A stretch of 64,000 bases of DNA from Candidatus Anammoxibacter sp. (lineage in GTDB: Bacteria > Planctomycetota > Brocadiia > Brocadiales > Anammoxibacteraceae). The stretch is from assembly GCA_021777105.1 (NCBI GenBank), contig JAIQZQ010000001.1, positions 49,067 to 113,066 of the forward strand, in the 5' to 3' direction. A program made the translations under genes and the position numbers. This document shows, piece after piece, positions 6,731-52,529 of the stretch. Each line of letters opens with the position of its first letter. Position 1 is the stretch's first letter. The notes beneath the pieces were generated by a model. The model was not told the origin of the DNA. It did no database searches and was given only the letters and a program-made list of their open reading frames with translations.

Positions 6731-6823
6731 ATTTCGAATTTTAAATTAAAATAATTGAACTGTGTTTGCCAAAATATTGCGTCATAATTTAGGTAAAACT
6801 TAATATCAGAGATACTAAAAAGA

Positions 6824-7720: not shown

Positions 7721-7745
7721 GTCAATGGTTGTAAAAACCGATTGA

Positions 7746-13864: not shown

Positions 13865-14665
13865 TTATGAATTATCTCTTCTGTCAACAATACACTCAAT
13901 TTCACCCCTGACGGACAGCCCAAACTCAAAAGGCGAAAACGAGGAGCCTATTGATATCTCATTTTCATTCATCTGTAAAATATAAGCGCCGTTTAATTTT
14001 GCGCCGTTTATTATGAGCCCGGAATGACTACTACGGTCCACAACAACAATATGCCCCTCTACCTTGTCTATTAAAAAATGGTTTTTCGAAACATAAAACG
14101 GTTCGTTATTTTCCTTAATACACAAATCATTGTCAGCCAAAACATCTTGCTCTTCTTTGCCCTCGCGGCCAATCTTAAAAGGGAACTTTTTAATTAACAC
14201 CTCTTCGCCGTCCAACGCGTTTTTGCTTATCTCGTTTAAGCCGCTAAGGACGGCGTATCTATTGTCTTTTATTACAATGTTGTGTTTTTCGTTATCATTT
14301 TTAGCAATAGCATTTGCGCTGTCGCGCGCAATAGTCACGGTGGCGGAACGCAATCTCTCAAAAAGAGCCTTTACAATAGATAATATTACTTTGCGGTCTT
14401 TTAAAAAAAGTTCATTAAACGATTCGCGGCTGATAACCCTTACGATTGAATCTTTAGTCGCTGTTACGGTAGCCGAACGCGGCTTGTCTTCAATCAGGCC
14501 CATTTCGCCAAAAACCTGTTTTTCACCCAGCTTGGTCAAAACCTTTTTAATGTCTCTGAAAGACCTTGAGACCTCAACTTCCCCTGTTTCAATTATATAG
14601 GCGAGCGTGCCGCGCGAGCCCTCTTTAATTATCACATCCCCTTTTTTATATTTTTCGGTCTGCAT
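13865..14665 (-). CDS. Cyclic-nucleotide-binding domain + FHA domain protein
   Basis: N-terminus: FGEMGLIEDKPRSATVTA (cNMP-binding). C-terminus: FKIGRE...VSKNHFLI...VVDRSSHSGLIINGAKL (FHA G-R...S..H...N pattern). Confidence 0.75.
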   Translation of the reverse strand: MQTEKYKKGDVIIKEGSRGTLAYIIETGEVEVSRSFRDIKKVLTKLGEKQVFGEMGLIEDKPRSATVTATKDSIVRVISRESFNELFLKDRKVILSIVKALFERLRSATVTIARDSANAIAKNDNEKHNIVIKDNRYAVLSGLNEISKNALDGEEVLIKKFPFKIGREGKEEQDVLADNDLCIKENNEPFYVSKNHFLIDKVEGHIVVVDRSSHSGLIINGAKLNGAYILQMNENEISIGSSFSPFEFGLSVRGEIECIVDRRDNS

Positions 14666-16543: not shown

Positions 16544-18241
16544 TCAGAGCCTGCCCGACCGAAAAATAGCGACCACAAGAGAAAACCCCATAACAGAAGC
16601 CAGCAAATACCCTACAATACCCAACACTGAGACGTTGTCCAAAATCAAAGGCCCAACCTGGCCCATCATTATAATGGACGAGCCAATTAAAGTCGCCGCC
16701 AATATTATGCTCAAGGCCAACCTGTTGCTGGATTTGTCAAGATCGGTAATAAGCGGCTCAAGCCCTTTATGTTTTAAAACAACCTGCAGGTCGCCGCCTT
16801 TAATCTTTCTTAATATGTGCCTGATCTCTTTGGGAGCCTGCCTTAACAGATTTGTCAAATGCCATGCGCTGGAGGTTGCTGATTTAGAAAGATTTTCGGA
16901 TGACAGCTTGTCCCTGAAAACATTGAAAATGTTTTGCGCCAACGGAGCGACGGCGTCAACAAAATTAAAGTCCGGGTCAAGCTCCTTTGCGATGCCCGCG
17001 ACAGTGACAAATGATTTTGCAAGCAACACAAAATCGCGCGGCAAAACCATATCGTGTTCGCGAGCCACGCTCATAATATCTGAAAAGGCTTTTGTTGTGT
17101 CGATATTCTTCAACGGCATCCCGTAATATTTATCTATCACTTCAAATATTGAAAGCCGCAAAGCATGCAAATCGCAATCAGCAGGCGTCAGGCCTAAATC
17201 TAGAAAAATATCAACAAACAGATCAAGGTCATGCTTTACCAGAGCCACCACAGCCGCTCCGAGTTGTTTCCTTAACTCCTCGGACACATGCCCAACCATC
17301 CCAAAATCTATAATCGCCAACGAGCCTGATTCAGAGACCATCAAATTTCCCGGATGGGGGTCGGCGTGAAACATGCTATTTTCAAAATATTGCGAAGCAA
17401 AAGATGTCGCCAAATCAGACGCCAGCCGTTTCTTGTCGATTTCCATTTCGTCGAATCTGTGAGCGTCGGAAAACGACAAATATTCAAACCTCTCAAGCGT
17501 CAAAATATTATGAGTGCTGTAATCCCAGTATACTTTCGGTACCTTTACTTTGCCGTTTGAGCTGAAAATGTCAAAAAACCTGGCAGTGCTTGACGCCTCG
17601 GAAATAAAATCAAGCTCGCGTTCAATCTTGCGGGAAAATTCGTTGACAATCATCGACGGCCTGTAGATCCTAAAGTCCTCAATCTTCTCCGCCTGCTCGG
17701 CTATGTATGACAATATGCCCATATCATTCATAATAACCGGGCCTATCCCGGGCCTTTTCACCTTTACAACAACCTCGTTGCCGTTGGAAAGTGTAGCTTT
17801 ATGAACCTGCCCAATAGAGCCGCACGCAATCGGCGCGTCGTCAAAAGATAAAAAGAGTTTGTCTATCGGAGCTTTGAGGTCGTTTTCAATAATTTCCCTG
17901 CTGGCGGACGATTCAAACGGCTTGACGTCATTTTGAAGCGATTGCAACTCTTTAATTAAACTATCGGGTATTAAGTCGGGCCTGGTAGACAAAACTTGCC
18001 CTAGCTTTACAAAAGTTGGGCCCAACTCCTGGCAAACGGACGCGATCCTTTTGGCCAGGGCTTCATCGCCTACATCAACTATTTTTGCGGCAGTGTCCTG
18101 AATGCGGTTGAGCAAAGGCAGGTGTGTGTGCAACCTCAGGTTGTAAACAAGATAACCAAACCCGTGCCTGGCCAACACCTGCGCGATTTGCGACAACCTA
18201 TATATTCTTTTTGGCGTTCTTACAAAACTGGTGAGTGACAT
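16544..18241 (-). CDS. ABC1/UbiB-family atypical kinase
   Basis: FVKLGQVLSTRPDLIPDSLIKELQSLQNDV, GSIGQVHKA, FHADPHPGNL and IDFGMVG, plus C-terminal TM helices. Confidence 0.85.
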   Translation of the reverse strand: MSLTSFVRTPKRIYRLSQIAQVLARHGFGYLVYNLRLHTHLPLLNRIQDTAAKIVDVGDEALAKRIASVCQELGPTFVKLGQVLSTRPDLIPDSLIKELQSLQNDVKPFESSASREIIENDLKAPIDKLFLSFDDAPIACGSIGQVHKATLSNGNEVVVKVKRPGIGPVIMNDMGILSYIAEQAEKIEDFRIYRPSMIVNEFSRKIERELDFISEASSTARFFDIFSSNGKVKVPKVYWDYSTHNILTLERFEYLSFSDAHRFDEMEIDKKRLASDLATSFASQYFENSMFHADPHPGNLMVSESGSLAIIDFGMVGHVSEELRKQLGAAVVALVKHDLDLFVDIFLDLGLTPADCDLHALRLSIFEVIDKYYGMPLKNIDTTKAFSDIMSVAREHDMVLPRDFVLLAKSFVTVAGIAKELDPDFNFVDAVAPLAQNIFNVFRDKLSSENLSKSATSSAWHLTNLLRQAPKEIRHILRKIKGGDLQVVLKHKGLEPLITDLDKSSNRLALSIILAATLIGSSIIMMGQVGPLILDNVSVLGIVGYLLASVMGFSLVVAIFRSGRL

Positions 18242-20341: not shown

Positions 20342-21616
20342 TCACAAATTCAGCTCTTTAATAAACTCCGCCATCTTTTCAATCTCAACCTCGTTCTCAT
20401 CGCCGGATTCCATATTTTTCAGTTTTGCCGCGCCTTTTTCAATCTCATCCGGGCCTACAATAAGCGTCATTTTAGACCCAATCTTGTTAGCCGTCCTCAT
20501 CTGCGCCTTTGTGCTTCGGTCTTCAAAATCCATATCCGCCGATATGCCCGCAGCTCTCAAATTATTCACAATGTTAAAGCAATCAGCCTTGCACTCCTTT
20601 GAGATCGACACCGCGTAAATATCAGGAGCAGGCCCGGCATTGTCGCCGTCGCCCGTAGCGGCATTTTTAAGCGCAAGAATGGAGGCCTCAATGCCCGCCG
20701 CAAAACCAACAGCCCCGGTCGGCGGCCCCCCTATCTCCTCAACAAGATAATCGTAGCGCCCGCCGGCGCAAATTGTGCTTCGAGCCCCAAGCGAGTGGTG
20801 AGTTATCTCGTACACGGTTTTCGAATAGTAATCAAGGCCGCGCACCAAATGGTCGTCAACCACATAATCAATACCGGACATTGAAAGAGATTTCTTAACC
20901 TCCTCAAAATGCGTAGCGCAACATGGACATAAATGCTCATGAATCGACGGCAGGTCCGCCGCAATCTTGCCGCATTTCTCCTCTTTGCAATCCAGCACCC
21001 TTAGGACGTTCCTATCCATCCGTTTATCGCACAAACCGCAAAGTTCGCCGCGTTGCTCCTCAAGCCTCCCCTTTAAAATATCCCTGAACCCCGGCCGGCA
21101 ATCATTGCATCCAATAGAGTTTATATTTACCGCAACATCATTAAGCCCAAGCCTGCTATACATATCCACCGCCACAATTATCGTCTCCGCGTCAAGCATA
21201 GGGTCGTCAGCGCCGATAGCCTCAACCCCCATCTGGTGAAACTGCCTTAACCGGCCAGCCTGAGGCCTCTCTTTTCTAAACATAGGCCCGATATAGTAAA
21301 ATTTCTGAAACTTCTTTGTTTTATGGAGTTCATACTGAACATACGCCCTCATAACCGCCGCCGTATTTTCCGGCCGCAACGTTAGCCCCGACGAATCCCC
21401 CTCCCTGAATGTGTACATCTCCTTTTCAACAATGTCCGTCACCTCGCCTATGCTGCGCACAAACAGGTTAGTGTCTTCAAAAACCGGCGTCCTTATCTCG
21501 TAATACCCCGCAAGCTCAAACACCTCCCTTGCAGTCTCCTCTATCCTTCTCCACAACCGCCAATCCTGAGGCATCATATCCTCGGTGCCGCGCGGAGCTT
21601 TTATTGTCTTTGCCAT
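20342..21616 (-). CDS. hisS: Histidine--tRNA ligase
   Basis: 424 aa. PRGTEDMMP start, RTPVFEDTNLF, class II motifs (FRKERPQAGRLRQFHQ), C-terminal anticodon-binding domain. Confidence 0.95.
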   Translation of the reverse strand: MAKTIKAPRGTEDMMPQDWRLWRRIEETAREVFELAGYYEIRTPVFEDTNLFVRSIGEVTDIVEKEMYTFREGDSSGLTLRPENTAAVMRAYVQYELHKTKKFQKFYYIGPMFRKERPQAGRLRQFHQMGVEAIGADDPMLDAETIIVAVDMYSRLGLNDVAVNINSIGCNDCRPGFRDILKGRLEEQRGELCGLCDKRMDRNVLRVLDCKEEKCGKIAADLPSIHEHLCPCCATHFEEVKKSLSMSGIDYVVDDHLVRGLDYYSKTVYEITHHSLGARSTICAGGRYDYLVEEIGGPPTGAVGFAAGIEASILALKNAATGDGDNAGPAPDIYAVSISKECKADCFNIVNNLRAAGISADMDFEDRSTKAQMRTANKIGSKMTLIVGPDEIEKGAAKLKNMESGDENEVEIEKMAEFIKELNL

Positions 21617-21957
21617 CTAAATTACCCGTATTTCAAATGTAATGAAAAATTATACTTACAGCGCCCAGCCGTTACAAGTCTAAAACGTTTTGCCACAGAG
21701 CCTTAAGTTTGCCCTGAACAAGCCATAAGTATATCAATACCGGCCACGCTTTTCAAACATATAAGGCAACTATTCATATCGTTTAAGCATATTGTTTTAA
21801 AATGATGAAAAAAGGCCTTAAAGGCGCAGTAACCATGAATCTTGAAGGACTACAAAAGCAAAAGGAAGGAAATCACAGGGCTTATCTTAACGGACCGGGC
21901 AAAAACAGCAATTTTGGTCAACCCTAACCCGGAGAAACCGGCAATTAGTCATTAAAG

Positions 21958-21997
21958 GCTGGAGCAGTCTTGCAGACTGATTCTAAACGTTTTTGCG
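21958..21997 (+). repeat. Hairpin + AAACGTTTT repeat family, copy 1
   Basis: gcagtcttgcagactgattctaaacgtttttgcg. Relatives at 25826-25861, 34954-34986 (reverse) and 63191-63232. Confidence 0.55.
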
Positions 21998-22170
21998 TTG
22001 CGATCTAATGAAACTTTAAATATCTTGTCAAATGTTTATATCCACTTTTAACAACCATGTCCTAACCAGCTCATATCCCGATTCAGTTGAAAAGAAAAAT
22101 ACAGATAATCTTGGCTCTACATTTATTTTCTCGATATGCCAATTGAGACACATCCAGTCAAGCAATATTT

Positions 22171-22290
22171 CTTTGCTCTTGTTTTATCCGTGAAAATCCG
22201 TGTCATCCGCGTTCCATGCATTTGCTTTTGCTCGGAGTTTATGCTGAGTAATTACGAAGCGCCCTTTGTTTCCACCGATTACCGAATACA
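22171..22290 (+). repeat. Mosaic intergenic repeat block R1 (short version)
   Basis: gttttatccgtgaaaatccgtgtcatccgcgttccatgcatttgcttttgc ... ccaccgattaccgaataca. The same modules in the same order occur in R2-R4. Confidence 0.7.
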
Positions 22291-22465
22291 AATGGGGCGC
22301 CATACCGTATGTCAAGCGGATTAATTTTGCCAATTTCTAACGAATGACCCGCCTTTATTTTTAATGTTTATTATATTTTGATTATCCGTTAAAATATTAC
22401 AAACGATGTGATTCAATGGATGTGTTGGTTCAGCGTGAAAATAATATACTTTTAAGGAGTGGACA

Positions 22466-22732
22466 ATGGCGTTAAAGCTGACAGAAAGCAGACCTGCAAC
22501 AGAAGACGAGAAAACAAGATCGCAGGAGTTTGCAATTGATGAACAATGGCTTTCAGAACATTCAAAAGACATTTGGGAAAAGTATAAGGGAAAATATATC
22601 GCAGTAGCCAAGCAGACTCTATTTGTAGATGACACATGGGAAAACGTCATCACTAAAGCGAAGGAAAAATACCCTCATAGAGAGCCACTAGTCAGACATA
22701 TTCCATTTAAAAGGAAAATTTTAGTAGTATGA
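22466..22732 (+). CDS. DUF5678-like small protein (partner of the retropepsin-like gene)
   Basis: WLSEHSKDIWEKYKGKYIAVAKQTLFV...AKEKYPHREPLVRHI fits my recollection of the DUF5678 consensus. The stop overlaps the next gene start. Confidence 0.45.
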   Translation: MALKLTESRPATEDEKTRSQEFAIDEQWLSEHSKDIWEKYKGKYIAVAKQTLFVDDTWENVITKAKEKYPHREPLVRHIPFKRKILVV

Positions 22733-23164
22733 TATTCCAAGGGAAATATGTAAATGAAGCCGGCATATATAGACCGTATATTAGCGCGGATTTACAGTCA
22801 CCGTCCAATAAATGGGTGATGATAGATTTCCTCGCGGATACCGGCGCAGATGAAACATTTCTCGACTATTCATACATTAAAAAATTCAACATTGATATGC
22901 ATGGAATAAATGTTAAAGATGATGTTGGGGGGCGTTGGAGGCTCAGGTGTCCCTTATTTCCAGATAGATTCGACCTTGAAACTTATTTCTCAAAGTGGAA
23001 CAAAAGTGTTTAACGGAAAAATAAATATTTTTCTTGATCCGTATTCCTGTGGAGCGCCAATACTCGGGCGAGATGTATTAGATAACTTTGTAACTATTTT
23101 CGACAGAAAACAAAACTCGATTTTTTTGCTTGATGAAATAGAACCTTATAAAATAGACCTTTAA
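22729..23164 (+). pseudogene. Retropepsin-like aspartyl protease, split by a frameshift in a G6 run
   Basis: Frame 1 (22729-23013) carries FLADTGADETFLD (a D-T-G motif). The C-terminal half, APILGRDVLDNFVTIFD, continues in another frame (22910-23164). The switch point maps to gggggg at 22927-22932. Confidence 0.6.
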
Positions 23165-23220
23165 GCCACATCAGCATTAAGGGTTCTCTCCGCCCCCCCT
23201 CCCGCCATTTGTAATTTATA

Positions 23221-23492
23221 TTCTTTCGCTTTTGTTTTATCAGTGAAAATCCGTGTCATCCGCGCCATCTGCGTTCCATCGCTTCTGCTTTTACCGATAA
23301 CCGATAACTTATTACCACTAACCTTGCTTTTGCCTTTTGCTGTTCTTTCGTGGGTACGTTTTTGCTTATATCTGTGTAATCAGTGAAATCTGTGGTTTGC
23401 TTTTGTTTTATCCGTGAAAATCCGTGTCCTCCGCGTTATCCGCGTTCCATGCATTTGCTTTTTGCCAACCGCCAATTGCAAACTGCAAATTG
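23221..23492 (+). repeat. Mosaic intergenic repeat block R2
   Basis: Contains the ccgtgaaaatccgtgtc module twice, plus accgataaccgataac, gctgttctttcgtggg, tctgtgtaatcagtgaaatctgtgg and gccaaccgccaattgcaaactgcaaattg. Confidence 0.7.
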
Positions 23493-23600
23493 AATTTTTC
23501 CTTTAATTTTTTGTATGAGTGATATTATAGTTGAAAAAAGAGAGCCATGATGCTAAGTTTAAGTCATCACGACTCATATTTGCATCAAAAGGAGGTATGC

Positions 23601-23855
23601 ATGAAAGCGTTAACAATTAGAGATATACCTAAAGAAGTTGAAAAAGTTATAAAAAAAAGAGCCGCCCGGAAAAATACGAGCTTGAACAAAGCTGTTATTG
23701 ATTTGCTTGAAGAAGCTACAGGCAAAAAGAGCAAAAAGAAAACGACTTACCACGATCTGGATTGCCTTTTTGGTTCATGGACTAAAAAAGAGGCTTCAGA
23801 GTTTGATAAAAACTTAAAAGAGCAACGCGGCATTGACAAGGAGCTTTGGGAATGA
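23601..23855 (+). CDS. vapB: VapB/FitA-like ribbon-helix-helix antitoxin
   Basis: MKALTIRDIPKEVEKVIKKRAARKNTSLNKAVIDLLEEA. aaaggagg RBS at 23588-23595. Overlaps the start of vapC. Confidence 0.65.
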   Translation: MKALTIRDIPKEVEKVIKKRAARKNTSLNKAVIDLLEEATGKKSKKKTTYHDLDCLFGSWTKKEASEFDKNLKEQRGIDKELWE

Positions 23856-24250
23856 GCAAAACCCTTCTCGACACATCCGCATATTCAGCTTTTATGAACG
23901 GAAATGAATCAGTAAAAAAATGGATACAGGAATCAGAAGAGATTTATATTAACCCGATTATTATAGGCGAATTAAAAGCCGGATTTAAAAAAGGCTCTAA
24001 AGAAGAGGAAAATTTAGATCAATTCAACAGATTTATAGAGTCACCCCGTGTAAACGCAATTTCCATAGATGAAGAAACTTCAGAGAGATACGCTATCATT
24101 TTAAACACGCTAAGGAATTCCGGCAAACCTATACCAACCAATGATATCTGGATAGCAGCCTGCGCCATGCAACATGGCCTACGCCTAATCACAACCGACA
24201 AACATTTCAATTATATTCCACAGATAATAGTTGCATACATCTCAAACTAA
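23846..24250 (+). CDS. vapC: PIN-domain toxin VapC
   Basis: LLDTSAY (first acidic residue), ...IGELKAG..., ...IPTNDIWIAACA..., LITTDKHF, about 130 aa. Coupled to the upstream antitoxin. Confidence 0.8.
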   Translation: MGMSKTLLDTSAYSAFMNGNESVKKWIQESEEIYINPIIIGELKAGFKKGSKEEENLDQFNRFIESPRVNAISIDEETSERYAIILNTLRNSGKPIPTNDIWIAACAMQHGLRLITTDKHFNYIPQIIVAYISN

Positions 24251-24290
24251 AACGGTTTAAAAACAAACAGAGCCGTCACTCTCCACCTTA

Positions 24291-24573
24291 TCCGCTTTTG
24301 CTTTTAAAATTAGTGAATATTAGTGAGAATTAGTGGTTAATTTGCTATTGCTTCTTGCTTTTATCCGTGAAAATCCGTGTCATCCGTGTCATCCGTGTCA
24401 CCTGCGTTCCATCGCTTTTGCTTTTACCGATAACCGATTACTGATTACCACTAACCTTGCTTTTGCCTTTTGCTGTTCTTTCGTGGGCATGTTTTTGCTT
24501 TTATCTGTGTAATCAGTGAAATCTGTGGTTGCTTTTGCTTCCACCTATTACTTATTACCGATTACCGAATACA
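24291..24573 (+). repeat. Mosaic intergenic repeat block R3
   Basis: attagtgaatattagtgagaattagtgg, ccgtgaaaatccgtgtcatccgtgtcatccgtgtc, accgataaccgattactgattaccactaacc, gctgttctttcgtgggc, tctgtgtaatcagtgaaatctgtgg and ccgattaccgaataca. Confidence 0.7.
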
Positions 24574-24795
24574 ACTTGAACGTTATTCTATATTTATATC
24601 TATAGTAGCTTATTTAAATACAAGAAATTATGTTTCATCTGAGGCAATACAATATTTAAATTGACAGTAATAAATTTGAAAGCAATAATAATCATACAAC
24701 AATTTATCTTTGCAACACAACCAAATGAATTAAAGACATATCCGTATCAAAAGACCTCAAAATTACAAAGAAAGCCCTTATAAAGGTGGATTTCG

Positions 24796-24990
24796 GTGAC
24801 ATTTAACGAGATTGTAAGATTACTTGAAAAAAACAATTTTAAGATTGTAAAAGAGAAAGGTTCTATTAGATACTACGGGAAAGTTGGTTGCGAAAAGTTA
24901 GTTCGCGTTGATTATCATGGTTCAAAAGAAGTTCCAAAAGGAACTTGCCATTTTATATTGAAATCCGCGGGAATAAGAAAAACTAATTAG
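24796..24990 (+). CDS. hicA: HicA mRNA-interferase toxin
   Basis: 64 aa, GTG start. FNEIVRLLEKNNFKIVKEKGSIRYY...VDYHGSKEVPKGTCHFILKSAGI is typical HicA/YcfA. Confidence 0.75.
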   Translation: MTFNEIVRLLEKNNFKIVKEKGSIRYYGKVGCEKLVRVDYHGSKEVPKGTCHFILKSAGIRKTN

Positions 24991-25001
24991 AAGGAGTTGA
25001 C

Positions 25002-25250
25002 ATGCTGGAACTTGAATATTCACTTATCATTGAAGCAACGGAAGAGCCTGATTATTTTGGGTTTTATTCTCCTGATTTGACCGGTTTTACCGGGATAGGA
25101 CATTCAGTAGAAGATTGTATTTACAAAGCAAAATGGGGAATGATAGAACACATTAATTTATTAAAAGAAAAAGGATTGCCCGTGCCGCCTAAAAGCGCAA
25201 ATCCCAAAATAACCATACAAAACGAAGAGAAATTAGCAATCCATGGTTAG
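25002..25250 (+). CDS. hicB: HicB antitoxin (short, UPF0150 type)
   Basis: YSLIIEATEEPDYFGFYSPDLTGFTGIGHSVEDCIYKAKWGMIEHINLLKEKGLPVP. Lies 11 nt after hicA. Confidence 0.75.
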   Translation: MLELEYSLIIEATEEPDYFGFYSPDLTGFTGIGHSVEDCIYKAKWGMIEHINLLKEKGLPVPPKSANPKITIQNEEKLAIHG

Positions 25251-25280
25251 CCTCCCCCTCTCTTTAGATCAACGTCTATA

Positions 25281-25533
25281 GCTTTTGCTGTTCTTTCGTG
25301 TAATTTCATGTTTTTCGTGGACACGCTTTCGCTTTTAAAATTAGTGAATATTAGTGAGAATTAGTGGTTAATTTGCTCTTGCTTATTGCTTTTATCAGTG
25401 AAAATCCGTGTCATCCGTGTTATCCGTGTTCTATGCTTTTGATTTTGCCAACCGCCAATCGCAAACTGAATCCCACTTTCCGCCTTTCACGCTTTTACCT
25501 CCACCGATTACTTATTACCGATTACCGAATACC
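25281..25533 (+). repeat. Mosaic intergenic repeat block R4
   Basis: Same module order as R3 (gctgttctttcgtg, attagtgaatattagtgagaattagtgg, cagtgaaaatccgtgtcatccgtg, gccaaccgccaatcgcaaactg, ccgattaccgaatacc). Confidence 0.7.
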
Positions 25534-25825
25534 AATGGACACACCTCCCATGAGCAAGCATCCCCCCTTCGCGCCATCACTACAAGACCTTACATTAATT
25601 GTCGCCATCTATAACCAACGTATTAATTACTCACGGATTACAGCATCAAAATATTTGTTTTTAATCATTTATTTCACACCGTAAAGCTTTTTATAATAGC
25701 CTGTCATTTTTATCACGCATATTTTATTCAAGTTTTTTTCTAGACAATAGACAAACAAAGCGCTAAATTTAAACACAAAATTATTTAAAATCCACAAACA
25801 AAAAGCAGATTACACAGATTAAAAG

Positions 25826-25861
25826 CTGAATCAGTCCTGCAGACTGATTCAAAACGTTTTT
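25826..25861 (+). repeat. Hairpin + AAACGTTTT repeat family, copy 2
   Basis: gaatcagtc-ctgca-gactgattc (9-bp stem) followed by aaaacgttttt. Confidence 0.55.
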
Positions 25862-26073
25862 GATTGACTATTACAATTGACCTTAAAACAAAATTTTGAG
25901 CATAAAAATTTATATTTTTTGTAAAAATCAAGGTAAAACCGCAAGCATTTCCTGAAATTATTATGTTTTTTGCAGGAACATCTTGATTAACAAGGATCAG
26001 ATTAAATTTAGAATTAATTTCTAGAGGAATGTTCAAAACAAAAATTCCATGAGCAAAGGGTATGAAAAGTTTA

Positions 26074-26179
26074 TAAATGAACACTTATCAGCTTGTCTGA
26101 TTTAGTGAGAATTATGCCTTGGAGGCTAAATGAACACTTATCAGCTTGTCTGCTATAGTGAGAATTATCCCCTGAGGGG
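26074..26179 (+). repeat. Two abutting copies of a 53-nt structured repeat
   Basis: Unit 1 (26074-26126) is taaatgaacacttatcagcttgtctgatttagtgagaattatgccttggaggc. Unit 2 (26127-26179) is taaatgaacacttatcagcttgtctgctatagtgagaattatcccctgagggg. Further copies at 53772-53824 and 13811-13862, both reverse. Confidence 0.75.
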
Positions 26180-26533: not shown

Positions 26534-26628
26534 TAACGTTACAGAAAAGTTTTTGATAAGTTGAAAATATAAAAATTAAATACTTTATAATTGAGATATG
26601 ACTCTAATGTTTTTCAGGAGACTAGCCA

Positions 26629-29406
26629 ATGGAACATAATGAATTGCCAAAGTTCGCAGAACTATTGAAAAATCCCACGAATGAGGAAGACTTGCCAAGT
26701 GATTTTGATGTCGAAACAGAAGCGAAACACCTTGAGGACCTCTGGCAGAAAAACAGAGCGAAACTCTCAAGGTATCACTTCGTGGATTTCATCCATGCTG
26801 GCGGAGCAGGGATGGTTTTCAAGGTTAAAGGGGGGGATATGCCCCAAGCACTAGCAATGAAACTCGCAAGGAGCAAACTTGTCTCCCAATCATCGGATGA
26901 TGTAGCAAAAGCGCTCTCGCCAGTGTCAGAATCCGAGCTTAGGGCGCTCAAACGCCTTTCTCACCCAAATTTAGTTTCACTGTCTGATGCTATTGAAGAC
27001 AAGCGAGGCATTGTGGGAATTGTCACGAGTCTTGTAGAGGAACCAAGGAATATACACGACTACATCGGAGAGGTTCTCCCTAAGCCTCCTCCGGAATCTA
27101 GTCCACTTGATCCCAGACGAATAGACCGCGCTTGTGAGTATGTTCTTGAGCGTTTTAAAGAAATTGCATCGGTTTTAAAACACATGCATCACAATGGGGT
27201 CTATCACTTTGACGTAAAGCCTGCTAACATCCTAGTGTCAAAAACCAAAAAGGACGTTTTTCTCACCGACCTTGGTGCATGCGTCATTACCGACGAACTG
27301 GATTTAAGTATTCGACACCGCGTGTACTTCACTTGGACCTATGCCCATTCAGAACTTGTTGACTTGGTGCATGACATTCGCGGCATTTCAGGGGGAGGAC
27401 TTCACTCATCAGCCGAGGTGGATCTCAGTGTTCGCCCTGAAAGATTCGACCTCTTTTCTCTTGGCAAAACCATTCAGGAGGTGCTGGCTGTGATTGAGTT
27501 GGAGTTTCGAGCGAGAAGTCATGCTTCATACCCGTTTCGTTTCTTGCATCTGGTAGCATGCCTGCTGCTTGATGGAAACAATGTCCCTGGCGCTTCCTAC
27601 GAGAAGTGGTATGAAGCAATCAAACAAGACGGTCGCACTTTTGCAAGCAACTGTGCTATGAACTACCCCGCAAAGCTTTTTGTGAAACACAAGATTCTAT
27701 CAGCAGGTGATCTCTGTGAGAGGCTTGATAGATTCGCTAATGGGATACCTTGGCAAGATAGTCTGCCGGAGCTCTCTCCTTGGTGCCCAGAAGGCCTTAA
27801 CAGTGTTATACACTCGCCTGCGCCCTTCACGCGACGTGTGTCAAAAACAGTTAACCATCCAATTTTTCAACGCCTCAAGAGGGTAAAGCACTTGGGTTGG
27901 ATGGACGAGGTCTACCCCGGAGCTACACATAACAGATGGACACACTCAATCGGCTCTTTTTCAGCCGTCGTTTCCTACATAGGTGCTCTACTTTTGGATC
28001 CAGAGGTACCAACCTTCCGGCTCCTGGCATCAGAAGATGATATCCGTCACACCTTGGTTGCGGCGCTGATCCATGATCTTGGACAAACTCCTTTTGGCCA
28101 CGATCTTGAGGAAGTAGCCCCGTTTCTCTATGACCACTCTGAAACCGTTGAGCGCCTCCTTCATGACAAGAGATGGGCCAAACCTACACTAGCAGAGAAT
28201 ATCAAGGCAGAATGGGATGTAGACATCGACAGGATTCTATGCATACTGAGAAACGGTAGAAAAAGTGGTAGGTTATCGCCTAAACACGAGGAGGACTTGC
28301 ACACCAGTGCAGTTGATGGCGTCGCTACTGACTGCATCGACGGCCCCATGGATGCGGATAAGCTAGATTACTTGATTCGAGACTCAGTCGCCTGTGGTGT
28401 TCCGTACGGTCACGGAATTGATGCGACCAGACTTCTCAAGTCTCTTACCGTTACAGCACGGCTTGATCCTAACTATGGAGCAAGGCTATCGCTTGCTTAC
28501 AAAGCTAAGGGCAGACCAGCCGTTGTTTCCCTATTACTTGCTCGGTACCAGATGTATGGATCTGTATATTGGCATCACACGTACCGATGCATTCAGACAA
28601 TGTTCTCGCGTGTAGCGGCTGACACCTTTCATGGACTGGACATATCAAGCCGAGAACTGAATGGCATAATGCTATACAAAAGTAGATTGAAGACCCTTTT
28701 CTATGACAGGGTTATCTTTGGCATTCCGTGGAATAAGTGTAGTGAACTCACAAAGTATAAGGCGAACAAGATGAATGCAGTGTTCAACTGCTCAATCCCG
28801 TCCTCGGTAGATCATGAGCCTGTACTTGAATTCATTTGGCGTTTCGCAGATGTAGGAAGTAGAAAGCTTCTTGAAGATCTCGGAGAAAGGCGGCTTTACA
28901 AGCGCGCCTTTGAACTTCGACTTGGGGAACTAGGTGATAGAGCGGACTATTCTGCAATCAGCGCGCATTTCACGCACAGAGAGAGGACGAACACGGCGCG
29001 GAACTTTCAGGATAATTTACTCAACACAATTGACGATCAGATGCGCAAGCACGGATCGACAGACACGGCAGCAGAGCACGAAGCCCGGCTAATCTTGTCG
29101 CAATGGAGGAGTTATTCCGGACCTCTGTTTCTCATAGACTTTCCTTCCCGAGGTGTTCCCGGCCCTGATGTAGACTTTCCTCTTGAGATTGTTGATGCGG
29201 TTCGAAAGTACTTTGTCATGTCTGGACGAGAAGAGGCGTCAGAAGATAACTTCTTCCATTCGGTGCGGACTCTCCAGCAGAAAACGGCAGCTATACGAGT
29301 GTTCTGTCAGCCAGATTTCCACAACGTAGTTGCAAGATACTTGACGCCATCCACAATCCAAAACTGCCTTTCTGAGGTTATCAGTTCTGTACCACCATCA
29401 AGATAG
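26629..29406 (+). CDS. Ser/Thr protein kinase domain fused to a SAMHD1/dGTPase-type HD phosphohydrolase domain, 925 aa
   Basis: Kinase: GGAGMVFKV, AMK, HFDVKPANIL, DLG. HD: HPIFQRLKRVKHLG...PGATHNRWTHSIG, LIHDLGQTPFGHD, DADKLDYLIRD. Confidence 0.85.
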   Translation: MEHNELPKFAELLKNPTNEEDLPSDFDVETEAKHLEDLWQKNRAKLSRYHFVDFIHAGGAGMVFKVKGGDMPQALAMKLARSKLVSQSSDDVAKALSPVSESELRALKRLSHPNLVSLSDAIEDKRGIVGIVTSLVEEPRNIHDYIGEVLPKPPPESSPLDPRRIDRACEYVLERFKEIASVLKHMHHNGVYHFDVKPANILVSKTKKDVFLTDLGACVITDELDLSIRHRVYFTWTYAHSELVDLVHDIRGISGGGLHSSAEVDLSVRPERFDLFSLGKTIQEVLAVIELEFRARSHASYPFRFLHLVACLLLDGNNVPGASYEKWYEAIKQDGRTFASNCAMNYPAKLFVKHKILSAGDLCERLDRFANGIPWQDSLPELSPWCPEGLNSVIHSPAPFTRRVSKTVNHPIFQRLKRVKHLGWMDEVYPGATHNRWTHSIGSFSAVVSYIGALLLDPEVPTFRLLASEDDIRHTLVAALIHDLGQTPFGHDLEEVAPFLYDHSETVERLLHDKRWAKPTLAENIKAEWDVDIDRILCILRNGRKSGRLSPKHEEDLHTSAVDGVATDCIDGPMDADKLDYLIRDSVACGVPYGHGIDATRLLKSLTVTARLDPNYGARLSLAYKAKGRPAVVSLLLARYQMYGSVYWHHTYRCIQTMFSRVAADTFHGLDISSRELNGIMLYKSRLKTLFYDRVIFGIPWNKCSELTKYKANKMNAVFNCSIPSSVDHEPVLEFIWRFADVGSRKLLEDLGERRLYKRAFELRLGELGDRADYSAISAHFTHRERTNTARNFQDNLLNTIDDQMRKHGSTDTAAEHEARLILSQWRSYSGPLFLIDFPSRGVPGPDVDFPLEIVDAVRKYFVMSGREEASEDNFFHSVRTLQQKTAAIRVFCQPDFHNVVARYLTPSTIQNCLSEVISSVPPSR

Positions 29407-29647: not shown

Positions 29648-32128
29648 ATGAGCGTATTTATAAGTTACAGTCATGACTCAGATGAACATATGAAAAATGT
29701 TTTAGATATTGCAAATCGGCTTCGTTCTGATTATGTAGATTGTGAGTTAGATCAGTATATTGAAAACCCTCCGGAAGGATGGCCTAAATGGATGGACACA
29801 CAAATTAAAAAAGCTATGTATGTTATTGTTGTATGCACAAAGCCATATAATTATAAATTTTCTGCAAACGATCAGGAAAGTATAGGAAAAGGCATTAAGT
29901 GGGAAAGTAGAATATCATATCAACACATTTATGATTTAGGATCTAATAATTATAAATTCATACCTGTAGTATTTTCTAAATCAGATATAGATTATGTGCT
30001 TACGCCTTTAAAAGGAAATACTGTATACCTAATCCCTAATGAATATGAGAAACTCCTACGTCGCCTTTCAGGAAAACCTTCAGTTGAAAAGCCAAACCTT
30101 GGTTTTTCATCAAAAAAAAATCTTTTTTTGACAAAAGATCAGGATTCAAATGTCGCAACAGAAATTGATATGATAGATATAGAATTAGTGATAAAAGAAG
30201 ATTTTGCAAACTTTTCACATGAAAAGGGAAAAGCTTTACTAAACGCCATTAAAGTTTTTCTTGATGCAGATTATGATATAAAAATAAAGAAAAAGCGGGA
30301 AGGCAGCACTTTATTAACTTTAGGATTACAACCAGAAGATGCCGAAAAGCTTTTGTGGGCAGCAAAATCAGGATATTTTGATAACCTTAATGTAGTTGAT
30401 GCAAATATGGTAGAGGTAGAAGCAGGAATGCCTACAAAACTATCAGAATTTAATGTTAAAACAGTTGAAAAAGAAATAAATGAATTCTTTAAAAAACATA
30501 TTGAACAAAAACCACCTAGGAACGAAACGGAAAGATTATTATGCAGTCTTTGGTCGCAAATACTGAAGACTGAAGTCTCCAGTATATTAAGCGATTTCTA
30601 TAAAGTTGGCGGTAATTCAGTATTAGCTATTAAACTAGTTTCTCTCATCCGTAATCGCTTCGGAATTGAAATGCCACTAAGGACATTTTTCGAAAGAACT
30701 ATTTTGTTAGAACAAGCAGAATGGCTTGATAAGCAACCTCCTAGCGCAAAATTGCCACCAGCCGAACCTTTCGTTAATGGTGTGCCATCTGTTTTGTCTT
30801 TTGCTCAACAAAGATTGTTATTCCTAATACAATTGAAAGGGCAAAATGCCGCTTATAATATGCCAATGGCTTTTTATTTACAAGGCCATCTCAATGAAAA
30901 AGCTTTACAGAATGCTTTATCCATTTTAATTAAACGCCACGATAGTTTACGGCTTTGTTTTCCTATTGTTAATGGAGTCACAAAGGCCCAGTTCAAAAAC
31001 GTTTATAACCCACTTACCGTAATTGATCTAAGCGGGTTACCGAAACAGAAACAACAACAACAAGTTACGGAATTGTTAACTAATCACGCCCATGCTTTAT
31101 TTGACTTAAATACTGGCCCTTTACTGAGTGTACAACTTATCAAACTTGGCTGTAAAGATCAGATTTTGTTGTTGAACATACATCAAATTATAAGCGATGA
31201 CTGGTCTACAAGGGTTTTGATTCGAGAATGTAGTCAATTATACAATATTTATGAACAAAATCAGACACCAGAAACGCCAAAACTGTCAGCCAAATATACT
31301 GATTACGTAGTTTGTCAGAGAGATTTGCTACAAGGAGCAGTCGTAAGGAATCAGATAACTTATTGGAAAGGTAAACTCGCTGGCGCATTGGAATTATTAG
31401 AATTACATTCAGATTATCCACGCCCGCCTGTAACGAGCTACCAAGGCAAACATTTGCAGAGTGTTTTAAGTACAGAAATAACACAGGGGCTTAACAGCTT
31501 AAGCAAAAGCCGTAACGTTACATCATTTATGACGTTACTTACGACTTTTAATGTTTTACTATATCGTTACAGTGGACAAACGGACATGCTTGTGGGCAGT
31601 CCTGTTGCGAATAGAACGCTTTGCCAAACCAAGGATTTAGTTGGATTTTTCTCCAATACGTTAATATTGCGAACACAAATTAAAAAAAACCAAACGTTTG
31701 CAAAGTTACTAACACAAGTAAAAAATACAGTTCTTGAGGCGTACAATAACCAGGAAATCCCTTTTGAATATTTGATAGAACAAGTAAAACCTTTTTGGAG
31801 GCTGAAACATGCACCATTGTTTCAGGTTATGTTTATATTATTAGATACACCTAGGGAAACGTTAAAATTTAACAGAATGAAAGTGTCTTTTTTGGAAGCC
31901 GAAAATATTATGACAAAATCTGACTTAACCTTAAAGGCATCTGAACACGAGGGAGTCTTTGTTTGTGATTGGGAATACAACTCGGAATTGTTCCGTGATG
32001 AAACTATCAATCAAATGGTCAAATATTTTCAGGTTTTATTAGAATGGATTCTTAATAATCCTGAACATTCGCTTTCTAAACTACCTTTATTAGAACAAAC
32101 CGAGAGTCAACAGTTAAAAGACTTTTAA
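29648..32128 (+). CDS. SEFIR/TIR-like domain + NRPS-type carrier (T) + condensation (C) domain protein, 826 aa
   Basis: N-terminus VFISYSHDSDEH...YVIVVCTKPY. Carrier FYKVGGNSVLAIKL. C-domain motifs LSFAQQRL, RHDSLRLCF, IHQIISDDWS, YTDYVV, VGFFSNTLILR and NQEIPFE. Markedly AT-rich (about 28-36% GC in sampled stretches). Confidence 0.8.
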   Translation: MSVFISYSHDSDEHMKNVLDIANRLRSDYVDCELDQYIENPPEGWPKWMDTQIKKAMYVIVVCTKPYNYKFSANDQESIGKGIKWESRISYQHIYDLGSNNYKFIPVVFSKSDIDYVLTPLKGNTVYLIPNEYEKLLRRLSGKPSVEKPNLGFSSKKNLFLTKDQDSNVATEIDMIDIELVIKEDFANFSHEKGKALLNAIKVFLDADYDIKIKKKREGSTLLTLGLQPEDAEKLLWAAKSGYFDNLNVVDANMVEVEAGMPTKLSEFNVKTVEKEINEFFKKHIEQKPPRNETERLLCSLWSQILKTEVSSILSDFYKVGGNSVLAIKLVSLIRNRFGIEMPLRTFFERTILLEQAEWLDKQPPSAKLPPAEPFVNGVPSVLSFAQQRLLFLIQLKGQNAAYNMPMAFYLQGHLNEKALQNALSILIKRHDSLRLCFPIVNGVTKAQFKNVYNPLTVIDLSGLPKQKQQQQVTELLTNHAHALFDLNTGPLLSVQLIKLGCKDQILLLNIHQIISDDWSTRVLIRECSQLYNIYEQNQTPETPKLSAKYTDYVVCQRDLLQGAVVRNQITYWKGKLAGALELLELHSDYPRPPVTSYQGKHLQSVLSTEITQGLNSLSKSRNVTSFMTLLTTFNVLLYRYSGQTDMLVGSPVANRTLCQTKDLVGFFSNTLILRTQIKKNQTFAKLLTQVKNTVLEAYNNQEIPFEYLIEQVKPFWRLKHAPLFQVMFILLDTPRETLKFNRMKVSFLEAENIMTKSDLTLKASEHEGVFVCDWEYNSELFRDETINQMVKYFQVLLEWILNNPEHSLSKLPLLEQTESQQLKDF

Positions 32129-32579: not shown

Positions 32580-33864
32580 AAAATAAGGGACAGGTTTATT
32601 TTTATGGCAATATTTGAATAAATTATGTATAATTCGCGCGTTAGAGATTTTTGGGGTTAGTTTTTCTTAACTATCTGATTTTGTGAGGGTTAAAATGGCA
32701 AGGATACCACGATTGATGCTTAAAAGCGAAGAGGGGATATATCATGTTATGTCGCGTACAGCTCTGGAGGGGTTTGTTTTAGGGGATGTCGAGAAAGATT
32801 ATTTGTTTGGCTTGATTAAGCGATTTAGCGGGATATTTTTTGCGGAAATTTTTGGGTATTGTATTATGGGCAATCATTTTCATCTGTTGGTTAAGATGGG
32901 GCAGTCTGATGATTATACTGATGATGAGATAAAAATGCGCATAGGCCGATATAATAGCGATAAGGACAAGGTTGTGACTAATGGGGAAGTCCCCTATTTT
33001 CGCGACAAATTCTCTAATCTGTCTGAATTTATGCGCGAGATAAAACAGAGGTTTTCACGTTTTTACAATAAACGGCATGAAAGGAGAGGCTATTTCTGGG
33101 GAGACAGGTTTAAAAGCGTTATTGTTGAAAAAGGGGATACTTTGATAAATTTGCTTGCGTATATTGATTTGAACCCTTTAAGGGCAGGGTTGGCAAGTCG
33201 GCCCGAGAATTACAGGTGGTGTTCGATAGGTTATCATGCGCAGACGGGCAATCGGGACGGTTTGCTTTCAACTAATTTTGGATTGATTGATTATGAAGCG
33301 ATGTCTGAACAGGAGAGATTGACGGACTACAGGGAGTTTTTGTATGAAAAAGGGGCAATTGAACCTGAAAAAGGGGCGACTATAAATGAAACTATAATGA
33401 AAACCGAACGCGCGGGCAAGTACAAGTTAACGGAGATAGACCGATTTAGATACAAAACGAGATATTTTACAGACAGTGGCATAATCGGCACAAAAGCTTT
33501 TGTTCGCCGTCACTTTGAGCATTTTAAAGATCATTTCAACACGAAGAAAACAAAAATCCCAAAAGAGGTAACCGGCTGCAAGGACATTTATTCGCTTAAA
33601 AATTTATCAAGCTGATTCATTAAATGCTTAATCTCAAATCCTCTACGATCAGCTATGTGCATCTTGTAAACCTGCCACATTACAATCCATTTTCCCTTCT
33701 TATATCCGACAATTATCAATTCTCCTCGTAAATGCATCATGTATATTTTCCCTTGAGCAGTCAAAATACACCAACAAAAAGCGCTACATCAATTTTTTGA
33801 AAATTATCTCACAAAACGAAAGAAATTGTTAATTTAGCTATAAAATAAACCTGCCCCCTATTTT
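32580..33864 (+). mobile_element. REPtron/IS200-like unit: Y1 transposase gene flanked by inverted hairpin repeats
   Basis: Left aaaataagggacaggtttattttta (32580-32604) versus the reverse complement of right aaaataaacctgccccctatttt (33842-33864), about 24/30 matching. Each arm is itself a small hairpin (aaaataa...ttatttt). Confidence 0.5.
32695..33615 (+). CDS. IS200/IS605-family Y1 (HUH) transposase, RayT-like
   Basis: MARIPR...GIYHVMSRT, HUH motif GNHFHLLV, AYIDLNPLRAGL and ENYRWCS. ATG at 32695 is preferred over the GTG at 32683. Confidence 0.8.
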   Translation: MARIPRLMLKSEEGIYHVMSRTALEGFVLGDVEKDYLFGLIKRFSGIFFAEIFGYCIMGNHFHLLVKMGQSDDYTDDEIKMRIGRYNSDKDKVVTNGEVPYFRDKFSNLSEFMREIKQRFSRFYNKRHERRGYFWGDRFKSVIVEKGDTLINLLAYIDLNPLRAGLASRPENYRWCSIGYHAQTGNRDGLLSTNFGLIDYEAMSEQERLTDYREFLYEKGAIEPEKGATINETIMKTERAGKYKLTEIDRFRYKTRYFTDSGIIGTKAFVRRHFEHFKDHFNTKKTKIPKEVTGCKDIYSLKNLSS

Positions 33865-34899: not shown

Positions 34900-34953
34900 G
34901 CCGGGAAAACCAAAGGACTGGTCTTAATTATTACGAATTGTAATCCCAAAGCA

Positions 34954-34986
34954 AAAACGTTTTGAAGCAGTCGACAAGACTGATCC
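34954..34986 (-). repeat. Hairpin + AAACGTTTT repeat family, copy 3 (reverse orientation)
   Basis: aaaacgttttgaagcagtcgacaagactgatcc. Confidence 0.5.
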
Positions 34987-35073
34987 AGATTTTAATTTTG
35001 TTTTTTCACTTTTAATCAATGTAATCTGTGGTTAATGAGCTTTTCCGGGTTATCCGGGTTAGGAATAATAAAC

Positions 35074-36919: not shown

Positions 36920-38326
36920 ATGAAACTGCTATTTGTCCATATAAAAGGGAGCAAAAAGGGACATTCCGAAGTGTTCGATAAGGAGAAGATCGCAATCGGG
37001 TCCGACCCTTCATGCTGCGTAATATTTGACAAGGGCGAGGAGGCTCAAGTGGAGCCTTTTCACGCCGAGGTCAGTTGCGAGGACGGCAAATATAATATAC
37101 GCAACCTCTCCGCCGGGCATAACACATATGTAAACAACGAGCCTGTTGAAAGCATAGCGCTAAACGACGGAGACGTTGTTGTTTTCGGCGAAAACGGGCC
37201 GGAAGTATGCGTGAGGTTTTCCGACTCTAAAAAATTGCCGGCATCTCTAAAAGTCGTCGCCGGCATGCTTGACTCTATGGAGGTTTCCAATGAAACAACG
37301 GAAAAACTAAAAGAAGAGGTCATGGAGATAAAACATTCCAGACCCGAAGCGCCTATTGATATAAACCTCTTTAAATACCTTGTTTGGCTTCCATTTAAAC
37401 AATCATCAAAAAAGGTCAAGTTTTATGTAGCCCTGTCAACCATTCTAATAATAAGCGTATTGTCATTGGCGGGATATTTCTATTTCTTTGAACTGAAAAA
37501 GACTACCAAAAGGGTCTTAAAACTTGAGACGCAGCAGACCGTTACTGAAGATTTCATTGAAACATACCGAAAAAGCGTCTGTTTTATCCAGGGAAGTTAC
37601 TACCTTGCCAGCAAAAAGACGGGCAATCCATTAAGGACGGGCAGAGACGGCAAACCTTTTATGCGCGATTTTACCGGATCCGGATTCCTATCTGATAAAA
37701 CAGGCATAATTATAACGAACAGGCATGTGGCCGACCCTGTCTGGCAAGCCGGCGCGCATCTATACAACAAGGAAAGCGGGCGGGACGGCCCCGGCGTGGA
37801 GGCAAGGTTTGCGGAGTTAAGAGCTTTTTTCCCGGGGATAAAAGGACCGTTTCCGCTTGAAATTGTAAAAATGTCGAAACACGCTGATATAGCTGTTTTA
37901 AAAATAAAATCCGGTTCCGTAACATTGCCGCCGTTTAACTTTGACCGGTCCGGCAAAGAGGCGAGAATTGGCGAGCCGGTTATACTTTTGGGCTATCCCG
38001 CCGGTATAAACGCCATTTTCGGCAAAAGCGATCAGGAAACCATAAACGAGCTGATTAAACTCCCGGTTTTGGAAATAGCCGAAGAGCTTTCAAACCGCAA
38101 TCTGATAACGCCTATCATAACCCAGGGGCACATTACCGACATCTCGCCGGGCAAGATCATATACGACGCTCAAACCACTTTCGGCGGAAGCGGCGGCCCG
38201 CTAATTAACTCAAAAGGCGAGGTTATAGGAATAAATTACGGAATCCTCAGAGAATTTAAAGGCTCCAATTTCGCCGTGCCCATTAAATACGGCATAGAGC
38301 TTTTGGATGAAAGCGCGGAGCGCTAG
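36920..38326 (+). CDS. FHA domain - TM helix - trypsin-like (S1/DegP-type) serine protease
   Basis: FHA: IAIGSDPSC...FHAEV...RNLSAGHNTYVNNEPV. TM: FYVALSTILIISVLSLAGYFYFF. Protease triad context: TNRHVA, DIAVLKI, GGSGGPLIN. Confidence 0.8.
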   Translation: MKLLFVHIKGSKKGHSEVFDKEKIAIGSDPSCCVIFDKGEEAQVEPFHAEVSCEDGKYNIRNLSAGHNTYVNNEPVESIALNDGDVVVFGENGPEVCVRFSDSKKLPASLKVVAGMLDSMEVSNETTEKLKEEVMEIKHSRPEAPIDINLFKYLVWLPFKQSSKKVKFYVALSTILIISVLSLAGYFYFFELKKTTKRVLKLETQQTVTEDFIETYRKSVCFIQGSYYLASKKTGNPLRTGRDGKPFMRDFTGSGFLSDKTGIIITNRHVADPVWQAGAHLYNKESGRDGPGVEARFAELRAFFPGIKGPFPLEIVKMSKHADIAVLKIKSGSVTLPPFNFDRSGKEARIGEPVILLGYPAGINAIFGKSDQETINELIKLPVLEIAEELSNRNLITPIITQGHITDISPGKIIYDAQTTFGGSGGPLINSKGEVIGINYGILREFKGSNFAVPIKYGIELLDESAER

Positions 38327-52490: not shown

Positions 52491-52529
52491 AAAGATAAAA
52501 ACATTATCCCCGGAAAGGATAATGTTGGA

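Follow-up and report, generated by a model that had tools for sequence, protein, structure and literature searches.

The stretch of DNA analysed here (the window) comprises 64,000 nucleotides (nt) of Candidatus Anammoxibacter sp., positions 49,067 to 113,066 of contig JAIQZQ010000001.1 in assembly GCA_021777105.1, and contains on its forward strand, at 26629..29406, a gene in which a protein kinase is fused to an HD enzyme. The architecture of the product is firmly established: a Hanks-type Ser/Thr kinase (residues ~48–290) leads through a conserved helical linker into a complete SAMHD1/EF1143-type HD fold (residues ~400–925). The initial annotation of the locus had described a single open reading frame (ORF) of 925 residues, and the ORF list and the translation agree with it exactly, with an ATG start and 925 codons plus the stop. 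The ribosome-binding site AGGAG is read at 26616..26620 (+), 8 nt upstream of the ATG. Consensus scans for a promoter or terminator around the gene gave no convincing call and stayed at the level of shuffled sequence. The 545-nt intergenic region upstream contains two tandem 48-nt direct repeats (26074-26174), which are 92% identical.

Statements on invariance are based on an alignment (A1) of 37 homologues with 23–49% identity to the window's protein, whose residue numbering is used throughout. All catalytic residues of both domains are invariant across these homologues and, as judged from the alignment, purifying selection acts strongly on both active sites. Mean pairwise identity was found to be highest in the HD core (0.46–0.49), followed by the kinase (0.35–0.39), and the C-terminal lobe varies most (0.17 between clades, 0.25 overall). 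For an AlphaFold2 model based on A1, the mean predicted local distance difference test score (pLDDT) is 86.8 and the predicted TM-score (pTM) 0.88, with low confidence only in short loops.

The kinase half and its linker

The protein begins with a conserved helical extension (residues 1–47, 26629..26769, +; LPxxF...E31...Y49), in which the model places helices at residues 9–14 and 28–41; E31 is nearly invariant and Y49 invariant. The non-RD kinase domain follows at residues 48–290 (26770..27498, +), as delimited by Pfam Pkinase and the invariant residues. The Pfam match covers residues 50–244 with an expectation value (E) of 9e-17 and 61.7 bits against a cut-off of 31.7. Since it spans profile positions 2–169 of 263 and ends there, the C-lobe of the kinase is, by this measure, divergent. 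In a sequence search of the PDB, the kinase domain matched CDK7, PknA and PknB.

The invariant kinase residues are G58, G59, K78, E103, H193, D195, K197, N200, D214, G216 and D274, with G61 present in 35 of the 37 sequences, and they cover the glycine loop, the ATP-anchoring Lys/Glu pair, the catalytic loop HxDxKxxN, the Mg-binding DLG and the αF Asp. All the kinase motifs quoted in the initial annotation are present; the catalytic Asp of HFDVKPANIL had been counted as D194 and is D195. Position 194, the place of the Arg of HRD, is occupied by F, L, M, C or G and never by R, and the kinase is therefore classed as non-RD, the type characteristic of innate-immune receptors in plants and animals. 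The P+1/APE segment reads F-T235-W-x-Y238-A-H240-P-[D/E] in place of GTxxYxAPE, and D274-x-x-[SA]-x-G279 is present. We take T235 to be the P+1-loop Thr and assume likewise the mapping of the kinase positions onto PKA or canonical numbering. Residues of the K197 and T235 type mark Ser/Thr-specific protein kinases as against small-molecule kinases. The predicted kinase is apparently catalytically competent.

The linker (residues 291–400, 27499..27828, +) is helical in the model and carries LLDG and PELD motifs, which contain the invariant or almost invariant residues L314, D315, G316, P380 and E381. A Pfam search of these residues gave no match, and the linker is confined to the kinase-HD family. 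When the kinase and linker module (residues 1–395) was searched, the next matches beyond family fragments were ordinary Hanks kinases with E ~1e-22 and 25–30% identity. The kinase was not found without its HD half, apart from fragments and one frameshift-prone contig, and this, together with the family-specific linker, argues for intramolecular coupling of the two halves.

The contig in question, L093, carries the kinase and HD modules as separate ORFs 270 nt apart in the stretch 6001-9000; asparagine synthase and aminotransferase genes of this contig are broken as well. A natural two-gene split (P0096, then the HD ORF) was considered and discarded; because several of the contig's other genes are fragmented too, the split is probably an artefact of a frameshift-prone assembly. 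Swapping of effectors behind the same kinase module was also considered and none was seen, the matches after the family being ordinary kinases; ten kinase-only loci that were inspected have TPR, WD40, AAA or Usp tails.

The SAMHD1-type half

The HD catalytic core extends over residues 401–680 (27829..28668, +), as delimited by PDB and profile matches and by the Pfam families HD and HD_assoc_2. HD_assoc_2 matches residues 597–677 (E 3e-11; 43.4 bits, cut-off 23.1), and Pfam HD (PF01966) is marginal at 21.7 bits with a cut-off of 22.0. Comparison of the family profile with PDB sequences gave Aq_1910 (2hek) at E 2e-42, EF1143 at E 1e-36 and SAMHD1 at ~1e-23. The H..HD..D metal site, which the initial annotation had recognised as intact, consists of H439, H482-D483 and D577 and is invariant in the family. 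Further invariant residues are R436, H491, E494, H503, D575, K578, D580, Y581, R584, D585, R639, Y647, W648, H650 and R653 in the core and R754, R759, D837 and R890 in the C-terminal lobe. Two motifs stand out, DxDKxDYxxRD and RYxxYxxxYWxH, and the HMMER alignment brings the HD motif columns into register with those of EF1143, Bacteroides thetaiotaomicron 2q14, Caenorhabditis elegans ZK177.8 and fungal SAMHD1, the structures including 6pwy and 9mr6.

The invariant His/Glu dyad H491/E494 aligns with S-H-T-F-E of EF1143; such a dyad is cited as required for the hydrolysis of deoxynucleoside triphosphates (dNTPs) in Clover CloA and the HD superfamily. The positions aligned with substrate contacts of SAMHD1 (R436, L422, K578, Y581, D585, R639 and Y647) are all invariant. 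The positions aligned with D137, Q142 and R145 of SAMHD1, which belong to its nucleotide-binding allosteric sites, vary among the 37 members. L422 aligns with L150 of SAMHD1 and Y647 with Y374. L150 and Y374 exclude a 2′-OH, and enzymes of the SAMHD1/EF1143 type convert a dNTP into the deoxynucleoside and triphosphate. On this likeness, the HD half would be a dNTP triphosphohydrolase.

In a Foldseek search of the PDB with the predicted model, SAMHD1 orthologues (including C. elegans ZK177.8) and EF1143 came first, with E from 2e-14 to 1e-12 (2e-14 to 1e-13 for SAMHD1, ZK177.8 and EF1143) and TM-scores, normalised to the target, of 0.59–0.69; about 550 columns were aligned with targets of 430–510 residues. 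The initial annotation had found no motif it could name in the last ~250 residues. Because nearly the whole target superposes, this part (residues 681–925, 28669..29403, +) most probably forms, to judge from the alignment length and TM-score of the model, the C-terminal lobe of the SAMHD1 fold and not a third domain. Both the profile hidden Markov model (HMM) searches and the structural comparison suggested with the initial annotation bear out the fusion, in that Pkinase and HD_assoc_2 lie above their cut-offs and well outside what chance would give, with Pfam HD at the margin, and Foldseek retrieves SAMHD1 and EF1143.

SAMHD1, EF1143 and ZK177.8 have the whole fold in common with the kinase-HD protein, including the C-terminal lobe, the H..HD..D site, the catalytic His with an acidic residue, DxDKxDYxxRD and RYxxYxxxYxH, whereas sequence identity is only 16–19%. 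Compared with SAMHD1, the kinase-HD protein has ~400 extra N-terminal residues, so that a Hanks kinase and linker stand in place of a SAM domain or of nothing. SAMHD1 is phosphorylated in trans by cyclin-dependent kinases (CDKs), whereas here the kinase is fused in cis.

The family and its genomic surroundings

A word-indexed search retrieved 92 kinase and HD homologues, most of them full-length; the full-length ones cover 99% of the window's protein, and the nearest is only 49% identical to it. In an exhaustive profile search of clusters at 50% identity, E was <1e-167 for each of the best 150 representatives, and 134 of these 150 are at least 800 residues long and span nearly the whole profile, which sets the number of full-length representatives at 134 or more. 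At least two full-length fusions were found among the best 80 loci from 185,579 species-representative genomes. Members with a named source belong to Acidobacteriota, Planctomycetota, Gamma- and Betaproteobacteria and one Asgard archaeon; they include Competibacteraceae, Burkholderiales, Bryobacterales, Blastocatellia, Thermoanaerobaculia, Pirellulales and one Thorarchaeota metagenome-assembled genome (MAG). The distribution is patchy and horizontally scattered, of the accessory or conflict type. No copy was found on viral contigs, where only HD-only relatives occur, and this is neutral for a defence role. Stand-alone SAMHD1-like HD proteins are common on giant-virus MAG contigs of IMG/VR (L174-L253) and are 23–31% identical to residues ~390–680.

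The annotation that members carry at present reads "protein kinase" or "HD superfamily phosphohydrolase" and nothing more. Neither PADLOC 2.0 nor NCBIfam 20 holds a whole-protein model for the fusion, the matches being to single domains and far below the cut-offs, and no mention of a kinase-SAMHD1 fusion was found in the literature searched, including DefensePredictor and recent reviews. A survey of dGTPase fusions (Nat Commun 2026, PMC13519002) lists SAM, NLR, TIR, CARD, death-domain and SIR2 partners, and the word "kinase" never occurs in it; these fusions follow the same principle, a dNTPase effector joined to regulatory or immune modules, but a kinase partner is not among them. All of these sources agree with the view of the initial annotation that no named defence system corresponds to the fusion. 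We have here a large family without a name and a credible candidate for a new single-gene antiviral system.

The neighbourhoods were compared by all-against-all BLASTP of ORFs of at least 80 residues within 8 kb of 32 loci. No conserved partner gene was found across the 32 loci, the only recurrences being a PASTA ORF and a PP2C phosphatase in a distant clade, and eleven annotated contexts all differ from each other. As no neighbour is conserved, the kinase-HD gene is a self-contained single-gene module. Among the ~23 loci with informative annotation, in 12 of which the immediate neighbours only were considered, seven lie within a few kb of an established defence gene (BREX, SIR2-STAND, restriction-modification twice and TIR/SEFIR three times), and about six further loci have toxin-antitoxin or integrase/transposase genes. 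This association is qualitative, with no background control, and is supportive but not decisive.

The individual cases are as follows. In a Thermoanaerobaculia MAG, 240 nt separate the 3′ end of the member from the end of the adjoining BREX genes brxL and pglZ (L005 3790-8460, −; PADLOC E 2e-285 and 0). A SIR2-STAND protein gene (L100) and type II/IIG restriction-modification genes (L111, L119/L120) abut the family gene. TIR proteins are encoded in L089 (two) and immediately downstream in L090, and a SEFIR protein in the window. Toxin-antitoxin pairs occur in the window, L002, L085 and L087, an ImmA/IrrE peptidase with a patatin-domain protein in L084, and an ImmA/IrrE peptidase alone in L112. 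Integrases or transposases were noted in L086, where Y1 transposases flank the family gene, in L090 and in the window.

In the distant clade, a PASTA-domain ORF of ~130 residues stands directly beside the kinase-HD gene (L112 13002-13391; L119 9237-9632; L120 1211-1606), in at least two independent loci, and could be an accessory sensor. A PP2C-type Ser/Thr phosphatase is encoded immediately upstream of the kinase-HD gene and divergently from it in L111 (925-1626, −), and a homologue ~4 kb away in L104 (7324-8235, −), an arrangement suggestive of a kinase/phosphatase cycle in part of the family.

The island around the window's kinase-HD gene is AT-rich and full of repeats; it is situated between hisS (20342..21616, −) and an FHA-trypsin gene (36920..38326). 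The composition of the kinase-HD gene (47.9% GC, and 46.8% GC at third codon positions, GC3) is near that of the core genes (GC3 ~50%). A recent foreign origin of the gene is unsupported by composition, as its GC is core-like and that of the surrounding island AT-rich. The island also carries DUF5678 (22466-22732), VapBC (a FitA/VapB-like gene plus PIN, 23547-24250) and HicB-like (25002-25250) genes. Intergenic repeats of a cassette-like period of ~1 kb run from 22100 to 25600, separating these small toxin-antitoxin-type genes; the repeat families measure 57–149 nt, are up to 95% identical and are rich in the heptamer tandem motifs ATCCGTG and TTACCGA. A 55–60-nt element with an internal hairpin (CAGTCTTGCAGACTG) is present at 21951-22004, 25818-25878 and 34936-34996, twice direct and once inverted, and its copies bracket the island; a 3-mismatch search of the window recovered only the two direct copies.

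Downstream of the kinase-HD gene, at 29648..32128 (+), an 826-residue protein is encoded which combines a SEFIR/TIR domain (PADLOC bSEFIR, E 1e-47) with a nonribosomal peptide synthetase (NRPS) carrier (PP-binding) and a condensation domain and is without an adenylation domain. No match to this architecture was listed in a collection of 5.8 billion proteins, where only the carrier-condensation part was matched (best identity 53%). The gene was considered as a partner of the kinase-HD gene and rejected, because no homologue stands beside other members, the architecture is a singleton and its GC3 of 27% differs from that of the kinase-HD gene. It may be a chimeric relic or an odd immune/NRPS hybrid. 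Further downstream, a REP-associated tyrosine transposase (RAYT/IS200-like Y1) of 310 residues is encoded at 32683-33615 (+).

A type III CRISPR-Cas effector cluster extends over 52455-63101 (+), with Cas6 at 52455-53495, a Cas10 palm-domain protein at 55227-56855 and three RAMP ORFs; a scan of three flanking stretches revealed no CRISPR repeat array. The region around the kinase-HD gene is flanked by the FHA and trypsin-like protease gene named above, on the forward strand, and by a gene for a cyclic-nucleotide (cNMP)-binding and FHA protein (13865-14665, −), and an ABC1 kinase gene lies at 16544-18241. FHA domains read phospho-threonine, and the flanking FHA proteins therefore point to a rich repertoire of Ser/Thr-phosphorylation signalling in this genome. 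The cyanobacterial HIP1 motif (GCGATCGC) is absent from the window, and transfer RNA and Rfam scans of the window gave no matches.

Proposed function of the fusion protein

Bacterial Dgt-type dGTPases protect from phage by dNTP depletion (Tal et al. 2022), and such dNTPases are toxic and need gating, as in Clover. What the Dgt dGTPases and Clover CloA have in common with the kinase-HD protein is the predicted chemistry, that of an HD enzyme bearing a His/Glu dyad, and probably the logic of nucleotide depletion; the FGHDLEE motif of the kinase-HD protein resembles the PFGHxxE motif of Dgt. The kinase-HD protein differs from the Dgt-type anti-phage dGTPase in belonging to the SAMHD1/EF1143 branch: PADLOC dGTPase (PDLC02374) matches only residues 432–495 (E 7e-6), and NCBIfam antiphage_dGTPase NF041026 and TIGR01353 give 15.3 and 22.7 bits against cut-offs of 400 and 152. 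Because the curated HMM scores 15 bits against 400, the protein is placed outside that family. Clover has a nucleotidyltransferase partner, CloB, whereas the kinase-HD protein is without one and has a fused protein kinase instead.

In architecture, the defensive dCTP deaminase comes nearest, a single gene in which an N-terminal "kinase" domain precedes a nucleotide-depleting enzyme and both domains are essential (Tal et al.). The kinase there is P-loop nucleotide-kinase-like (G29A/C30A in the nucleotide-binding motif), a fold unrelated to the Hanks kinases, with a deaminase as the effector in place of an HD enzyme. A eukaryote-like Ser/Thr kinase core is common to the kinase-HD protein and to Stk2, PD-T4-6, PglW of BREX/Pgl, MAD6 of MADS and MkoA of Mokosh, but the matches are to the generic core only (residues ~44–286; NCBIfam MAD6 45 bits, cut-off 460), and none of these kinases carries a SAMHD1-type domain.

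As the explanation that we tentatively prefer, the protein would be a self-contained nucleotide-depletion defence protein, in which a built-in kinase controller switches a dNTPase effector by phosphorylation on infection. The SAMHD1/EF1143-type dNTP triphosphohydrolase in the C-terminal 525 residues would be the effector, and the non-RD kinase of the N-terminal half, welded to it through the family-specific helical linker, the controller. On infection, the kinase would act as a switch for the hydrolase, through phosphorylation or a phosphorylation-dependent rearrangement, within one chain or between the subunits of an oligomer, and the active effector would strip the triphosphate from dNTPs and so starve DNA replication, that of the invader and transiently that of the host. 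The initial annotation already suggested a defence role, which in our view would most likely be anti-phage; the evidence for it is circumstantial (no conserved operon, a patchy distribution, and defence and mobile genes as neighbours) and falls short of proof. The direction of control, from kinase to hydrolase, the trigger and the acceptor site are what we infer, and the "phosphorylation-gated or infection-sensing" effector of the initial annotation remains conjecture.

Several observations weigh against this explanation. The protein is without a recognisable sensor domain, and no conserved phospho-acceptor tied to regulation was found among the Ser/Thr columns of the HD half in A1, only generic Ser/Thr-rich ones (401, 433, 440, 607 and 813, at least 85% Ser/Thr). 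Phosphorylation of the activation loop is usually dispensable for non-RD kinases; the kinase is therefore probably independent of it, which leaves the switch undefined. In L001, L091, L092 and L004, the family gene stands amid ordinary metabolic genes. Moreover, the residue following HDxG is Gln in 29 of the 37 members. We take it to be the equivalent of His210 of SAMHD1, and substrate handling may therefore differ.

This last point bears on the proposal that the HD half acts on some other substrate, such as ribonucleoside triphosphates, a signalling nucleotide or nucleic acid, and not by dNTP depletion. Aq_1910, the closest profile match, and 2q14 are products of structural genomics that the PDB lists simply as "hypothetical protein" and "phosphohydrolase", Dgt-type HMMs from both PADLOC and NCBIfam give very low scores, and PDB entries document that SAMHD1 binds nucleic acids too. 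Nevertheless, the metal ligands, the His/Glu dyad, L422 and Y647 are all invariant, and the biochemically characterised relatives EF1143, SAMHD1 and ZK177.8 are dNTPases, and such a change of substrate appears improbable.

It is somewhat easier to imagine, though still unlikely, that the protein is a dual effector, the kinase being a second weapon which phosphorylates many host or phage proteins, and the dNTPase depleting dNTPs independently under allosteric gating by nucleotides, like SAMHD1 or CloA of Clover. Stk2 reportedly phosphorylates many proteins on infection, and the same is presumed for kinases of the PD-T4-6 type. The best PADLOC scores of the kinase domain are indeed to the defence kinases MkoA, MAD6 and PD-T4-6 (E 1e-14 to 2e-16), and the protein-kinase features K197, the P+1 Thr235 and the αF Asp274 are all retained; these matches, however, are limited to the generic kinase core. 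Clover is a case in which nucleotides alone gate a bacterial dNTPase. R754 and K758 fall at an allosteric-site helix in a weak, non-significant profile match to fungal SAMHD1, a hint of a retained nucleotide site; this helix is presumably the R451 helix of SAMHD1. Near the FQRL motif, on the other hand, the positions of SAMHD1 allosteric site 1 are unconserved (N409 is variable and Q414 is R in 20 of the 37), and both the family-specific linker and the rarity of a free kinase speak for a coupled pair.

A regulator of the dNTP pool in housekeeping or development, in which the kinase couples hydrolysis to cell-cycle or stress signalling with no immune role, is quite unlikely; it would correspond, in cis, to the control of SAMHD1 by CDKs or to the part that Dgt plays in the Caulobacter cell cycle. 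In its favour, SAMHD1 is under phospho-regulation by CDKs, a Caulobacter dNTP triphosphohydrolase promotes cell-cycle progression (PMC12186491), some loci are metabolic in context and the window's gene is core-like in GC content. Housekeeping sits poorly with zero synteny across the 32 loci, with a very sparse distribution that crosses phyla and domains, with a closest relative of the window's protein as distant as it is, and with the repeated occurrence of BREX, restriction-modification, SIR2, TIR, toxin-antitoxin and integrase genes as neighbours.

Nucleotide depletion by dNTPases is an antiviral strategy common to bacteria and humans, and how the toxic enzyme is restrained and set free is a central question. 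The gates known so far are allosteric nucleotides, in SAMHD1 and in CloA/CloB of Clover, and, in humans, the phosphorylation of SAMHD1 by CDKs, on the effect of which opinion remains divided. With a family in which a kinase is permanently attached to a SAMHD1-type enzyme, the phospho-control of dNTPases could be studied in a compact and genetically tractable model. Such a family would also enlarge the list of single-gene defence systems and link two eukaryote-like immune modules in prokaryotes. It is a more doubtful proposition that the family as a whole is a widespread and hitherto unrecognised single-chain immune class, in which a non-RD kinase senses infection and phospho-switches the attached SAMHD1-type dNTPase. 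If true, it would add protein phosphorylation to the known gates of nucleotide-depletion immunity and would be the prokaryotic in-cis counterpart, and possibly the evolutionary forerunner, of the kinase control of SAMHD1.

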